In this document: in pieces, positions 12,041 through 22,279 of the stretch
How the letters are laid out: every line of letters begins with the position of its first letter
Position numbering within the stretch: position 1 is the first letter of the stretch
Source of the DNA: Candidatus Micrarchaeales archaeon
GTDB lineage: Archaea > Micrarchaeota > Micrarchaeia > Micrarchaeales > CABMGC01
Direction of reading: 5' to 3'
Length of the DNA: 33,985 bases
Assembly (NCBI GenBank): GCA_049520335.1
Contig: JBEKPX010000001.1
Span: forward strand, 1-33,985
Notes under the pieces: model-generated
What the model was told of the DNA's origin: nothing
The model's database searches: none
What the model saw: only the letters and a program-made list of their open reading frames with translations
Position numbers and translations under genes: made by a program

Positions 12041-13081
12041 CTATTTTCTTCCCTTTCTTGATCTGTTGCTTCTCAGACCCCTAACGCCCACAGCAGCAAC
12101 AGCAGTTGCCACTGCTATGCCTATGGCTATAAAAGATATAAGCGTGCTTGTCGTTGGACCTGATACTGAGGGCAGTATGACTATCGGAGCATCATTTCCA
12201 TAGCTATATGTTGCCACTTGACCAGCGCCTCCTGCTCCACCAGTTCCTGTTTGATTATAAGGCGAACCTACTGTCCCCCCTGCAACGTCATATGTTCCAG
12301 CAATATATCCGCCAGAGCCGTAAGATAGCATTATGACTCCTCCTCCTGAACCTGCACCGCCTGGGTCCCACGGCTCACCGCAATACTCGCTTGAATCGTT
12401 GCCATTTATGCCCACCGCATTTATCATTCCTGCTGCTATTTTATTCGCTTGTATGTAAACTCCATAAGTGCTTGCCCCAGAGTAAGGACATGGGTGAGTT
12501 CTGCCCCCGGTGCTGCTGTCTTGTCCTCCACCGCCTCCAGAAATATAATTCTGAAAACCGCTACTGTACCAATTTATTATATTATCTTTTGACATGAAAG
12601 GCACATTCGGGGTTGATCCGTTACCTCCACTTGCCGTATTAATATCAGTGTATGCTCCTCCTGCAACTAAAGTGTTCCCACCATTACCAGAATAAAAACC
12701 GCCAGCGCCGCCCCAACCAGAACCTCCACCTCCTCCAGATCCGCCAAATGAAGATGGAAAAGAAGTACCCTGCGAACCCGCATAAAGCTTAGGTCCGAGA
12801 GCATCATTTCTGTACCCGGTTGTTATTACACCGTTATTTGTTACTGTGCCGCTGCAATAGATATTGAAACCATTTGTGTTTAAAGTAACTCCCTTGTAAA
12901 TTGTAAGGTTGCCGCAAATTAAATCGCTTACTAAGGTAGTATCCGAAGAAATGACAACATTTGTATTAGCCGCCTTGTAGTAAAGTGCTGGGTTAGCTGA
13001 GACAGATCCGAGCAAAAAGACAAACACAAGACTGAAAAAGAGCCCATTCTTCAGCACATTTGATGATTTTAGCATGAACAC
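12041..13081 (-). CDS. Glycine-rich secreted protein with C-terminal TM anchor and Arg/Lys tail
   Basis: Signal peptide MFMLKSSNVLKNGLFFSLVFVFLLGSVSA. Long Gly-rich tracts (GGSGGGGGSGWGGAGGFYSGNGG, GGAGSGGG, GTGGAGGAGQ). C-terminus LISFIAIGIAVATAVAAVGV-RGLRSNRSRKGRK. Confidence 0.75.
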   Translation of the reverse strand: MFMLKSSNVLKNGLFFSLVFVFLLGSVSANPALYYKAANTNVVISSDTTLVSDLICGNLTIYKGVTLNTNGFNIYCSGTVTNNGVITTGYRNDALGPKLYAGSQGTSFPSSFGGSGGGGGSGWGGAGGFYSGNGGNTLVAGGAYTDINTASGGNGSTPNVPFMSKDNIINWYSSGFQNYISGGGGGQDSSTGGRTHPCPYSGASTYGVYIQANKIAAGMINAVGINGNDSSEYCGEPWDPGGAGSGGGVIMLSYGSGGYIAGTYDVAGGTVGSPYNQTGTGGAGGAGQVATYSYGNDAPIVILPSVSGPTTSTLISFIAIGIAVATAVAAVGVRGLRSNRSRKGRK

Positions 13082-13239: not shown

Positions 13240-13341
13240 AGCCGCCGGCGAGGATTGAACTCGCGACCTTCTGCTTACCATGCAGACGCTCTTTAGTGCC
13301 CGAATCCCTTAGAGACTGAAGTACCACTGAGCTACAGCGGC
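13240..13341 (-). tRNA. tRNA-Thr (anticodon GGU) interrupted by a 30-nt D-loop intron
   Basis: Reverse strand: GCCGCTG-TA-GCTC-AGTGGT[30-nt intron]A-GAGC-G-TCTGC-ATGGTAA-GCAGA-AGGTC-GCGAG-TTCAATC-CTCGC-CGGCGGC-T. It has a 7-bp acceptor stem (one G-U pair). The mature length is 72 nt and no CCA is encoded. Confidence 0.8.
13293..13322 (-). other. Non-canonical tRNA intron (30 nt, position about 20/21) within a bulge-helix-bulge motif
   Basis: Outer helix GCTC:GAGC (the D-stem). Central 4-bp helix AGTG (exon):CACT (intron). The 3-nt bulges are GTA (5' side) and AAA (3' side). The inner helix is weak (C-G, U-G, U-G). Exact splice points are ambiguous by one A. Confidence 0.7.
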
Positions 13342-13367
13342 GGCCATTTGATTAAGCTTATATGAAA

Positions 13368-13377
13368 CTTATATACC
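13368..13377 (-). promoter_or_regulatory. TATA box candidate (GGTATATAAG on the minus strand) for tRNA-Thr
   Basis: Centred about 31 nt upstream of the tRNA 5' end at 13341. Confidence 0.4.
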
Positions 13378-13461
13378 TTATCTCTGGCGCATTCCTTAGA
13401 AGGACAAAGAGCAAGAAGTGAGCATAGCTCCTCTTGCGCACTGATGGACATTTTGGAGTTG

Positions 13462-13737
13462 TTATTCAGCGGGTACTTTATAGACCTTGTCGCCCTCCCT
13501 GACCTTCTGGTCAACCTTCATGCCTATAGATTCACCAGCCTTAGCGGATTTCACTTCCTTGTGCTCTATCTGCATGCTGGTTATGCTTTGGGAGAAGTTG
13601 GTCTCCTTGCCCTCTATTGAGACAGTATCGCCAACGCGAATATCCGCGCGCAGGTTTATGACAGCTACCCCTATCCTGTCATAGTAGTGCTCTATGCTTC
13701 CTATTTCCTTTCTTTCCGCCATAAAGCTCATTCTCAT
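13462..13737 (-). CDS. Small EF-Tu domain-2-like beta-barrel protein
   Basis: IGSIEHYYDRIGVAVINLRADIRVGDTVSIEGKETNFSQSITSMQIEHKEVKSAKAGESIGMKVDQKVREGDKVY matches the translation-factor domain II barrel pattern. The likely true start is MAERKE at 13722. Confidence 0.55.
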   Translation of the reverse strand: MRMSFMAERKEIGSIEHYYDRIGVAVINLRADIRVGDTVSIEGKETNFSQSITSMQIEHKEVKSAKAGESIGMKVDQKVREGDKVYKVPAE

Positions 13738-13817
13738 GTAAGATTAAGAAAGCTTTCCTTCTGACTAGCAGGAAAAAATAGATGCAGGGCTTGTGCGCCA
13801 TCAGGATTCTTTGACTA

Positions 13818-14516
13818 TTAAAATCGAAATACAGACTTGATATCCTCTGCTTCCGATTCTCCGAGGTGCCCTACATTGCTCAGTTTGCCTAGTGCTGCAG
13901 CTGTTGCTGCTTTTAAATCAGGATATATTCTTACTATGATTGATTCTAGAAGAGGTTGCTCTGGAGGCTTAATTAGTATTTCACTTTTATATATGGTTAG
14001 AGGCGCCTCACTTTTAGAATTATGTTTAATGAAACTAAAGAAGAAATTTTGTGCGGATTCTGAGTCTGGAAATTTTAAGTGGTGCTCAGCTTTGTCAGAA
14101 CATACTGACTCAATGTAATAAAGAGCAGGTAATTCTAGAGTCGAATAATCTGCTACCTCTTCTCTTGGTATGAGACGCACTTTATCTTCCCTAACCGCAA
14201 TCACTTTAGTGATATCTCTATTCTCAGGCGCTTCTATCGCCTTCTTTACTTTCTCTGTAAAGACTGAAAAAGTATGCATGTTTTGTTTTGGTTCTTTAGG
14301 AGCTACGAATACTTCTGTTGAGGCGACCCACAAGCCATCCTTTGGATTCAATGGATCATGATCTTCAGAGCGTACGTCTACCACTGTTGCCTCAGAAAAT
14401 CTATTCAGTCGTACAACTATCTCTTCTAGTTTGACAGGCGTTGCTTTTTCCAGTGCATCAGTTTTTACTGTATTTTTTAATTTGGTAGTATCTCTCATAT
14501 TATTCCCGAATAGCAT
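13818..14516 (-). CDS. Hypothetical protein (232 aa), no recognisable motif; AT-rich gene
   Basis: Long uninterrupted ORF with plausible composition. No catalytic or nucleotide-binding motif was recognised. Confidence 0.55.
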   Translation of the reverse strand: MLFGNNMRDTTKLKNTVKTDALEKATPVKLEEIVVRLNRFSEATVVDVRSEDHDPLNPKDGLWVASTEVFVAPKEPKQNMHTFSVFTEKVKKAIEAPENRDITKVIAVREDKVRLIPREEVADYSTLELPALYYIESVCSDKAEHHLKFPDSESAQNFFFSFIKHNSKSEAPLTIYKSEILIKPPEQPLLESIIVRIYPDLKAATAAALGKLSNVGHLGESEAEDIKSVFRF

Positions 14517-14582
14517 CAGTTTTGAGCATATTTAATAATATGCTTGAAAAATTACAAAGAATCTTTCTGAATAATGCGGCGC

Positions 14583-15086
14583 TTATTGTTTAGTTAGATT
14601 TAGTTCTTTTTTCAGCTCCGCCGATGCTTCGATAGAATCAGTGCTGCTCTTTTTCCTTAACAAGTCAGTTATTTCCGTTGCCGCCTCTTTCGAAAAAGTC
14701 GGATATTCTTTGACAATCTCCAGGATGTTTGAAGTATAATGCTTTACAGAATCCGCAGAAGCATCTCCCTCAGCAATTCTTCTAAAGTTTTCCTTTAAAG
14801 ACTCATTTGCGCATTTCTCAAGTATCCTTGACTTTTCTTCTTCATCCAGATTCTTCATGGAGTCTGTAATAAAATGGGTTGCTTTATCTTTAATTGTGGA
14901 ATTTTGTGTTTTAGAACGAACGCAAAGAGCTATAAATACCTTTTCTTCTAGTGCGGCCGGAAAATCAGAAGATACTAATTCCTTCCAGGCATTGGATGCA
15001 ACTCTAAGGTCTTTCGCGGCTGCGTGATCCCTCAGTTCTTCTTTTTTCTGGTCTGTAGCTTTTAGTATAATTCCAACTCCACTCAT
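14583..15086 (-). CDS. Hypothetical all-alpha-looking protein (167 aa); AT-rich gene
   Basis: Uninterrupted ORF rich in E/K/A/L. No motif was recognised. Confidence 0.55.
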   Translation of the reverse strand: MSGVGIILKATDQKKEELRDHAAAKDLRVASNAWKELVSSDFPAALEEKVFIALCVRSKTQNSTIKDKATHFITDSMKNLDEEEKSRILEKCANESLKENFRRIAEGDASADSVKHYTSNILEIVKEYPTFSKEAATEITDLLRKKSSTDSIEASAELKKELNLTKQ

Positions 15087-15249
15087 GATATTACCTTAAT
15101 AACATACGTTTTGGAGGTATTTAAGCATTCGTCGTGATTTCATTCAGCATACAAGAGAGAATTTGATTAATCTCACACTGTTCCTTGTACAGAATGGCAG
15201 GATTGAGGAGAATTGATGCTTAAGATTCACTATAGCATTAATCTGCTTA

Positions 15250-15375
15250 GATATTAGTCTCCTACTTAGGTGACTCCAAACATGCTCAGCAATAGTTTCA
15301 AGATATTGGAGGTTACTCCAAACATACTTAGAGACACTTTCACGATATTGGAGGTTACTCCAAACATACTTAGAG
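15250..15375 (+). repeat. Direct repeat array with 42-bp phasing; the best units are GATATTGGAGGTTACTCCAAACATACTTAGAG
   Basis: Identical 32-mers at 15302-15333 and 15344-15375. A diverged copy GGTGACTCCAAACATGCTCAG starts at 15269, and a shortened copy GATATTAGTCTCCTACTTAGG at 15250. The core starts (15269, 15311, 15353) are exactly 42 nt apart. Each full unit contains the dyad TTGGAG-GTTA-CTCCAA. Confidence 0.85.
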
Positions 15376-15512
15376 TTATCATTGATATCATATATCCCAT
15401 TCCTTTTCGCTCCTTTCAGGAGCTATGCTCTACGTTAGAAGCATAAGCATATAAGAGTTCTACATGTTTCTTAGCCCGAAAAGTTAGAAACAGGTGGCAT
15501 ACTTGAGCTTGG

Positions 15513-15528
15513 ATTCTACTAGTAGAAT
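15513..15528. repeat. Perfect 16-nt palindrome ATTCTACTAGTAGAAT, 5 nt downstream of the tRNA-Leu 3' end
   Basis: The sequence is its own reverse complement. No adjacent T-run, so its role (processing signal, protein site or weak terminator) is unknown. Confidence 0.6.
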
Positions 15529-15533
15529 TGTTT

Positions 15534-15637
15534 TGCAGGGGGTGAGATTTGAACTCACGTAGGCGCTGAGGCCACAGGATCTTAAGTCCTGCGCATTTTT
15601 CTGTGGCTAAGGCCAGACCAGACTCTGCCACCCCTGC
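15534..15637 (-). tRNA. tRNA-Leu (anticodon UAA), class II with long variable arm, interrupted by a 19-nt D-loop intron
   Basis: Reverse strand: GCAGGGG-TG-GCA-GAGTCTGGT[19-nt intron]AA-TGC-G-CAGGA-CTTAAGA-TCCTG-TGGCCTCAGCGCCTAC-GTGAG-TTCAAAT-CTCAC-CCCCTGC-A. The mature length is 85 nt and no CCA is encoded. Confidence 0.8.
15598..15616 (-). other. Non-canonical tRNA intron (19 nt, after G18-G19-U20) within a bulge-helix-bulge motif
   Basis: Central helix TCTG (exon):CAGA (intron). The 3-nt bulges are GTC and AAA. The inner helix is a perfect TGGC-CTTA-GCCA hairpin. The outer helix is not contiguous with the D-stem, so this is a relaxed BHB. Confidence 0.7.
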
Positions 15638-22204: not shown

Positions 22205-22279
22205 CGGGCACGGCGGGATTTGAACCCGCAACCAACAGCTCCGCAAGCTGCCGTGCTATCCAAGTTACACCACGTGCCC
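22205..22279 (-). tRNA. tRNA-Arg (anticodon GCG), intron-less
   Basis: Reverse strand: GGGCACG-TG-GTGT-AACTTGGATA-GCAC-G-GCAGC-TTGCGGA-GCTGT-TGGTT-GCGGG-TTCAAAT-CCCGC-CGTGCCC-G. 75 nt, no CCA encoded. Confidence 0.9.

Follow-up and report, generated by a model that had tools for sequence, protein, structure and literature searches.

A short D-loop intron, probably protein-spliced, in the tRNA-Leu(UAA) gene of a Micrarchaeota archaeon

Introduction

The archaeon ARMAN-2 (Candidatus Micrarchaeum acidiphilum; Fujishima et al. 2011, PMC3239211; Hirata et al. 2012, PMC3488258) belongs to the same phylum as the organism studied here and has the same three-unit splicing endonuclease. Of its tRNA genes, 56% are interrupted (PMC3239211). 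Relaxed motifs at non-canonical positions, T-loop introns at 59/60 and the presence of a tRNA-Ile(UAU) are common to ARMAN-2 and to the genome described below. The ARMAN-2 substrates that have been shown to be cut carry introns at 37/38 and 59/60 (PMC3239211, PMC3488258), whereas the intron described here is located in the D-loop. We found no published cleavage of a D-loop substrate by an epsilon2 endonuclease in the literature. Nor did we find, in the main texts of the two ARMAN-2 papers (PMC3239211, PMC3488258), a description of an order-wide conserved D-loop intron in tRNA-Leu(UAA).

In Archaea generally the known non-canonical insertion sites include 20/21, 30/31, 45/46 and 59/60 (PMC4090602). 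The Crenarchaeota, especially the Thermoproteales (Marck and Grosjean 2003; Sugahara et al. 2008, 2009; reviewed in PMC4090602), share with the present genome the insertion sites, bulge-helix-bulge (BHB) as well as HBh' motifs, the occurrence of multiple introns per gene and a broad-specificity endonuclease alongside; their enzyme is of the heterotetrameric (alpha-beta)2 type, whereas the one found here is of the epsilon2 type. For Aeropyrum pernix there is experimental support that its broad-specificity endonuclease removes introns, non-canonical ones included, from the precursors of tRNA-Thr isoacceptors (PMC3241643), although phylum and enzyme type differ from those of the Micrarchaeota considered here.

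We analysed a stretch of 33,985 nt from a Candidatus Micrarchaeales archaeon (GCA_049520335.1, contig JBEKPX010000001.1; hereafter, the window), which is contig 1 of a 734 kb assembly (G000) of 70 contigs with an estimated completeness of about 72%. Of the three tRNA genes in the window, two have D-loop introns. Here we describe the interrupted tRNA-Leu(UAA) gene.

Results

The tRNA-Leu(UAA) gene

The gene is situated at 15534..15637 on the minus strand and comprises 104 nt including the D-loop intron. The sequence reads as a Leu-type acceptor stem, an anticodon loop CUUAAGA, a long variable arm and a normal T-arm, and a cloverleaf is obtained after in-silico splicing. In unspliced form the gene was missed in the window both by ARAGORN, with and without the intron option, and by the Rfam tRNA model at gathering score. 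ARAGORN called only the third tRNA gene of the window, the intronless tRNA-Arg(GCG) at 22205..22279 (minus strand), and Rfam at gathering score found this gene and the interrupted tRNA-Thr. A permissive scan yielded over 15535–15637 a tRNA-Sec match of 26.7 bits and a partial tRNA match, but nothing more.

The initial annotation had stated that removal of 19 nt restores a tRNA-Leu of 85 nt, and such an 85 nt sequence is indeed called tRNA-Leu(UAA) by ARAGORN. The 87 nt sequence obtained by removing 17 nt (15599–15615) is likewise called, whereas the precursor is not. After splicing, our own solver gave a cloverleaf score of 27.0, the same as for intronless tRNAs, and the conserved tRNA nucleotides were restored. 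No second Leu(UAA) gene was found in the assembly. We hold it to be highly probable (about 88%) that this region is a genuine, functional Micrarchaeota tRNA-Leu(UAA) gene, the D-loop of which is split by a short protein-spliced intron of the relaxed HBh' type. With a size of 17–19 nt the insertion is far too short for a group I or group II intron or an insertion sequence.

Fold of the precursor

The minimum free energy fold of the 104 nt precursor (–43.2 kcal/mol; z = –3.0 against shuffled sequences) is a cloverleaf in which the D-arm is extended by the helix UCUG:CAGA, the 3 nt bulge GUC and the hairpin UGGC-CUUA-GCCA. The D-loop nucleotides C17, U17a and G18 (15619..15621, minus strand) form the exon strand of the central helix and pair in this fold with the intron sequence CAG (15601–15603). 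The hairpin, that is the inner helix h', occupies 15604..15615 on the minus strand and is supported by the fold as well as by its conservation in orthologues. Helix, 3 nt bulge GUC and hairpin had been described in the initial annotation and recur in the computed fold, but the second 3 nt bulge proposed there is a 3×4 internal loop that separates the D-stem from the central helix, with G13, A14 and G15 opposite four A. There is thus no outer helix stacked on the central one. Since the 3' splice site falls within this internal loop and not within a true 3 nt bulge, the motif is of the relaxed HBh' type and not a strict hBHBh' motif. Depending on whether 19 or 17 nt are removed, the central helix has 4/4 or 3/4 pairs; the 5' bulge comprises 3 nt and the inner hairpin 3–4 bp.

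We infer both the splicing and the position of the cuts, and the following order of events would fit the fold. In the precursor C17-U17a-G18 would pair with the intron CAG, and this helix would be extended either by a U16:A pair or by a juxtaposition of G19 and A. The remaining intron would then form the small hairpin, which would place the 5' splice site in the 3 nt bulge between the two helices and the 3' site in the A-rich internal loop beside the D-stem. An epsilon2 endonuclease tolerant of relaxed non-canonical motifs would cut both sites and RtcB would ligate the exons.

Splicing enzymes

Both enzymes are encoded in the assembly. A 386 aa open reading frame on contig C53 aligns with residues 3–386 to residues 5–387 of the ARMAN-2 EndA (PDB 4FZ2, 395 aa; E = 7.6e-151), and Pfam finds the N-terminal and the catalytic domain. 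The homologue is colinear with the three-unit (alphaN, alpha, betaC) ARMAN-2 enzyme on a single polypeptide, as is characteristic of the epsilon2 type. The catalytic triad Tyr236/His251/Lys282 and the lysine K161 of the specificity loop (numbering of the epsilon2 residues according to PMC3488258) are all identical in the alignment, the loop reading GSYKASER versus GTYKVSEH. As judged from this alignment, the assembly encodes a full-length epsilon2 splicing endonuclease. The ligase RtcB is present on contig C6 (12950–14254; E = 3.9e-171). Its gene is situated about 260 nt from the tRNA-Leu(CAA) gene (12593–12691 on the same contig), which is interrupted in the T-loop.

Conservation of the intron

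Sixty relatives from the same order were searched with BLAST, and the intron-bearing Leu(UAA) gene was found in 54 of these genomes, full-length in 52 and cut by a contig end in two; two further genomes (G042 and G037) have an intronless gene, and no gene was detected in the other four. One unpublished genome (G050) is counted among the 54 and also among the cases of the Gln intron described below; no conclusion hangs on it. In a phylum-wide sample of 150 genomes matches were obtained in 24 of 25 and in 45 of 45 genomes of two families of this order, nearly all of them full-length, and other families gave partial matches only, which cover the 3' part of the gene. In other orders of the phylum the D-loop is uninterrupted; the intron is absent from the four outgroup Leu(UAA) genes that were fully readable among six regions fetched. 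A search pattern derived from the intron with its flanking sequence matches at least 119 public genomes, among them the complete genome of ARM-1, and nearly all of these are labelled Micrarchaeota, Micrarchaeales or Micrarchaeaceae. Part of the above reading, held with the same high probability, is that the common ancestor of the two families, or an earlier one, acquired the Leu(UAA) intron, which has been kept since.

Among 46 distinct orthologues the mean column identity is 85%. When these are placed on the proposed structure, 98% of the cells pair, compared with 41–57% when the partners are slid; none of 500 shuffles reaches 98%. The middle pair of the central helix varies between U:A, U:G and C:G, and the stem of the hairpin hardly varies, with a single change from C:G to U:A. 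The hairpin loop is variable (3–13 nt), so that the structure is kept while the loop drifts, as is expected of a BHB intron.

Several further features were observed in the alignment. Positions G24, G25, C33, A34 and C35 are identical in all 46 orthologues, the intron core being as invariant as the exons. The third D-stem pair (alignment columns 12 and 52) is an A/C mismatch (A12, C23) in 14 of the 46 and G:C in four. There is a resemblance between the intron hairpin and this tRNA's own variable arm, and the intron sequence GCCACAG is the exact reverse complement of CUGUGGC in the exon (gene nt 61–67); this could be due to chance or could be a trace of the origin of the intron. In another Micrarchaeota family the Leu(UAA) gene L260 (G074:C1:122430–122596), the 5' half of which was not found, seems to carry a longer insertion directly behind the anticodon loop in place of a D-loop intron.

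Census of tRNA introns in the assembly

The tRNA genes of the whole assembly were compiled from cmsearch and ARAGORN matches and with our own splice-aware cloverleaf/BHB solver. The census comprises 36 tRNA genes, 17 of which are interrupted by a total of 19 introns: ten at 37/38 and nine at non-canonical positions. Three of the latter lie in the D-loop, namely those of tRNA-Thr(GGU) (20/21, 30 nt), tRNA-Leu(UAA) (17 nt as favoured here, or 19 nt) and tRNA-Gln(CUG) (20a/20b, 15 nt). Position 30/31 is occupied in tRNA-Phe(GAA) (26 nt; C7:12203–12302), tRNA-Ser(CGA) (11 nt; C5:5283–5379) and tRNA-Thr(CGU) (16 nt; C15:13997–14098), the last of which also has an intron at 37/38. The remaining ones are found in tRNA-Asp(GUC) at 45/46 (33 nt) and in the T-loops of tRNA-Leu(CAA) at 58/59 (13 nt) and tRNA-Ala(GGC) at 59/60 (44 nt). 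In the complete genome of ARM-1 the D-loop is interrupted in Leu(UAA) and Ser(GCU), and there are at least five introns in T-loops. For the complete same-genus genome G003, the D-loop intron of Leu(UAA) and the T-loop intron of Leu(CAA) are the only ones among the resolvable non-canonical introns.

The three introns at 30/31, in the anticodon stem, all end with G(G/C)CGAA. The longest intron of the assembly by far, 112 nt at 37/38, interrupts an initiator-type tRNA-Met with an A1:U72 pair (C4:18038–18224). In five of the 36 tRNA genes (C20:1558–1628, C40:1608–1678, C30:1039–1109, C10:8504–8589 and C24:10831–10902) the T-loop starts with U54-C55-C56, as in UCCGAUU, and thus lacks the near-universal U55; several relatives show this feature in their tRNA-Thr(GGU).

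The second interrupted gene of the window, tRNA-Thr(GGU), is located at 13240..13341 on the minus strand with a 30 nt intron (13293–13322) at 20/21. Rfam matches it with a 31 nt insertion, and our solver assigns a strict hBHBh' motif (H 4/4, h' 3, h 4). Intronless orthologues read AGUGGUAGAGC. A 30–31 nt intron was found only here and in the closest relative, G012; four other genera have a 15 nt intron at the same site, and 24 other genomes are intronless. The third D-loop intron lies outside the window in tRNA-Gln(CUG) (C14:10945–11032, minus strand). It comprises 15 nt, GGUC↓ACGGAAACGCCACAA↓AAGGAC (arrows, splice sites), and has a perfect 4 bp central helix. Four same-genus genomes lack it, and introns of 16–28 nt are present in another family and three further genera. 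The exons of intronless relatives are identical for Gln and near-identical for Thr. This patchy distribution fits repeated gain or loss at the D-loop site, and the Thr(GGU) and Gln(CUG) introns may be younger than that of Leu(UAA).

Work by Fujishima from 2010 is said to have found many Thermoproteales introns to be similar in sequence across different tRNAs, which suggested transposition. The introns of the present assembly do not form a family of this type: all-against-all and intron-against-genome searches with blastn-short revealed no significant similarity among the 19 introns, with matches of only 6–7 nt (E = 0.16–1), and no extra copies elsewhere in the assembly; intron transposition was rejected on these grounds. 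The Leu and Thr introns share no significant sequence, in line with what had been noted from the window itself, and the D-loop introns share only the few nucleotides required to pair with the GG of the D-loop.

Why the D-loop?

It had been proposed that position 20/21 is either favoured by the endonuclease or by intron gain in this lineage, or that the D-loop is protected as a target site of integrating elements. Compared with a uniform model, the insertion positions of the 19 introns are clustered (P about 0.003), but 20/21 is not favoured over 30/31: the D-loop and 30/31 harbour three introns each and the T-loop two. What remains of the first proposal is that the D-loop 3' of G18-G19 is recurrently used (Thr GGU, Leu UAA and Gln CUG here, Ser GCU in ARM-1), in a patchy manner for Thr and Gln; a special preference for 20/21 is not seen. 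The lineage reuses the D-loop site as one of several generic sites allowed by broad-specificity endonucleases.

This clustering rather probably reflects general structural limits on the formation and cutting of BHB motifs, which would favour loops beside helices in all Archaea with broad-specificity endonucleases; it would then point neither to a lineage-specific favouring of 20/21 nor to the D-loop being defended. The about equal use of D-loop, 30/31 and T-loop in the census points in this direction, and so do the listing of these sites in Crenarchaeota and Nanoarchaeota as well (PMC4090602) and the overlap, stated in PMC3239211, between the intron sites of ARMAN-2 and the major ones in other archaea. 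The look-alike intron ends GCCACA and CACUAA are likewise the parts forced to pair with the conserved GG of the D-loop. Such limits leave unexplained that throughout an order the core of the Leu(UAA) intron varies no more than the exons do and that D-loop introns occur only in certain tRNAs.

Protection against integrating elements is an existing hypothesis (PMC4033280, citing Randau and Soll 2008; PMC3488258), and no evidence for such a role was found in this analysis. An integrated element beside the tRNA gene can be rejected, as the three open reading frames in the 2.2 kb spacer between tRNA-Leu and tRNA-Thr contain no integrase or other mobile-element domain and there is no duplicated tRNA 3' end beside the tRNA-Leu gene. 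The spacer (13342–15533) harbours, besides these reading frames of 91, 232 and 167 aa, three 42 bp tandem repeats at 15268–15393. In many relatives tRNA-Leu(UAA) lies next to tRNA-Thr(GGU) in the same orientation, with a spacer ranging from about 70 nt (G029) to the 2.2 kb seen here.

Position of the splice junctions

Two registers one nucleotide apart at the 5' junction were considered. We regard it as likely that the intron comprises 17 nt (UGGCCUUAGCCACAGAA; 15599..15615, minus strand) inserted between C20a and A20b, that is GGUC↓...CAGAA↓AAAUGC. Exon 1 would then extend over 15616..15637 (gene nt 1–22) and end with GGUC, and exon 2 over 15534..15598 (gene nt 40–104) and start with AAAUGC, both on the minus strand. 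In the initial annotation the 5' cut had been placed after U20, with a 19 nt intron, an 85 nt tRNA and an insertion point identical to that of tRNA-Thr. On this reading the intron (CUGGCCUUAGCCACAGAAA) would occupy 15598–15616 on the minus strand between U20 and A21, with exon 1 ending at 15617, strict 3-4-3 geometry and a 9 nt D-loop in the mature tRNA.

By its motif the 19 nt register is the better one. With the central helix UCUG:CAGA (H 4/4, h' 4 bp) and the bulges GU↓C and AA↓A, it has the better geometry and the top motif score and is the predicted fold; its 85 nt product is accepted by ARAGORN, and the central helix has 4/4 pairs in 37 of the 46 orthologues. In nine of the 46 the outermost pair, 16:A, is a C/A mismatch. 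Against removal of 17 nt speaks that the best fold and the best 3-4-3 geometry fall in the 19 nt register and that its own central helix, CUGG:ACAG with the bulges UC↓U and AA↓A, needs a G/A mismatch (H 3/4). On their own, scores of our solver cannot separate registers that are one nucleotide apart; the Gln intron scored equally in two registers, and there it was the orthologues that decided.

Comparative evidence points to the 17 nt form. The D-loops of outgroup Leu(UAA) genes read GGUCAAAUGG, GGCCAACUGC and GGAAAAAGC, those of the intronless in-group genes GGUCAAAUGC (G042) and GGAAAACGC (G037), and the other four Leu genes of the assembly have 11 nt D-loops all ending with CAA. The common pattern of outgroups, the two intronless genes and the four paralogues is GG(U/C)CAA or GGAAAA. 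Removal of 17 nt produces GGUC+AAAUGC here and GGAA+AAUGC in the same-genus type, both of which correspond exactly to intronless patterns. Removal of 19 nt yields a D-loop that is 2 nt shorter than in every intronless orthologue, outgroup and paralogue compared, and in orthologues of the GGAA type it would leave no nucleotide between G19 and A21. Moreover, tRNA-Gln(CUG), whose spliced form equals same-genus intronless genes with identical exons, shows a perfect 4/4 motif in the register of the 17 nt type (GUGG:CCAC, bulges UC↓A and AA↓A), so that this verified intron does not use the register of the 19 nt form. As the 17 nt form alone matches the D-loops of intronless orthologues, outgroups and paralogues, the 5' junction would be after C20a and not after U20, and we consider the 19 nt intron rather unlikely.

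The product of the 17 nt junctions is most likely an 87 nt tRNA with the usual 11 nt D-loop of tRNA-Leu. The Leu gene would then probably share its insertion site with tRNA-Gln(CUG) and be one nucleotide off the site in tRNA-Thr. It remains true that two of the three tRNAs of the window have D-loop introns, but their insertion points, taken to be one and the same in the initial annotation, are probably 1 nt apart. Instead of a precise loss of the intron, G042 could have undergone gene conversion, the donor being a Leu paralogue whose 5' half is the same.

Discussion

Conservation of the Leu(UAA) intron throughout an order can be read further. The core of this old intron could be under selection beyond the requirement of pairing, with the neighbouring D-loop site acting as a hot spot at which introns arise de novo time and again in several tRNA families (Thr GGU, Gln CUG, Ser GCU). 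We think this combination rather unlikely; possible reasons for selection on the core would be a precursor-dependent modification, a role in folding or an origin of the intron as a copy of the variable arm. If it were true, the Micrarchaeales would be a natural system for watching protein-spliced introns arise.

That the insertion is retained as an extra D-loop hairpin of the mature tRNA, or that the gene is a decaying pseudogene, is highly improbable even though standard tRNA finders reject the unspliced sequence, since retention would lock G18 and G19, which are needed for the contact of D-loop and T-loop, in a helix, since this is the only Leu(UAA) gene found in the assembly and its conservation, compensatory changes included, extends to more than 100 genomes, and since splice geometry and both splicing enzymes are conserved.

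The tRNA-Leu(UAA) gene with its short D-loop intron reveals no new mechanism; introns of this kind and the endonuclease that cuts them were already known in the Micrarchaeota lineage. New are the order-wide conservation of the D-loop intron of Leu(UAA) and the probable correction of the splice site by one nucleotide. At this gene the cut sites suggested by the best-looking motif are one nucleotide off those suggested by the evolutionary evidence, and the case may help to define what the epsilon2 endonuclease accepts. One deeply conserved and two patchy D-loop introns near the same site form a comparative dataset that could help to time intron gain and loss.

For the annotation of these genomes the finding is of practical value. 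Standard tRNA finders miss the only tRNA-Leu(UAA) gene found in the assembly, and the orthologues in more than 100 Micrarchaeota genomes are probably missed too; as a consequence, the decoder of UUA would seem to be absent from these organisms.
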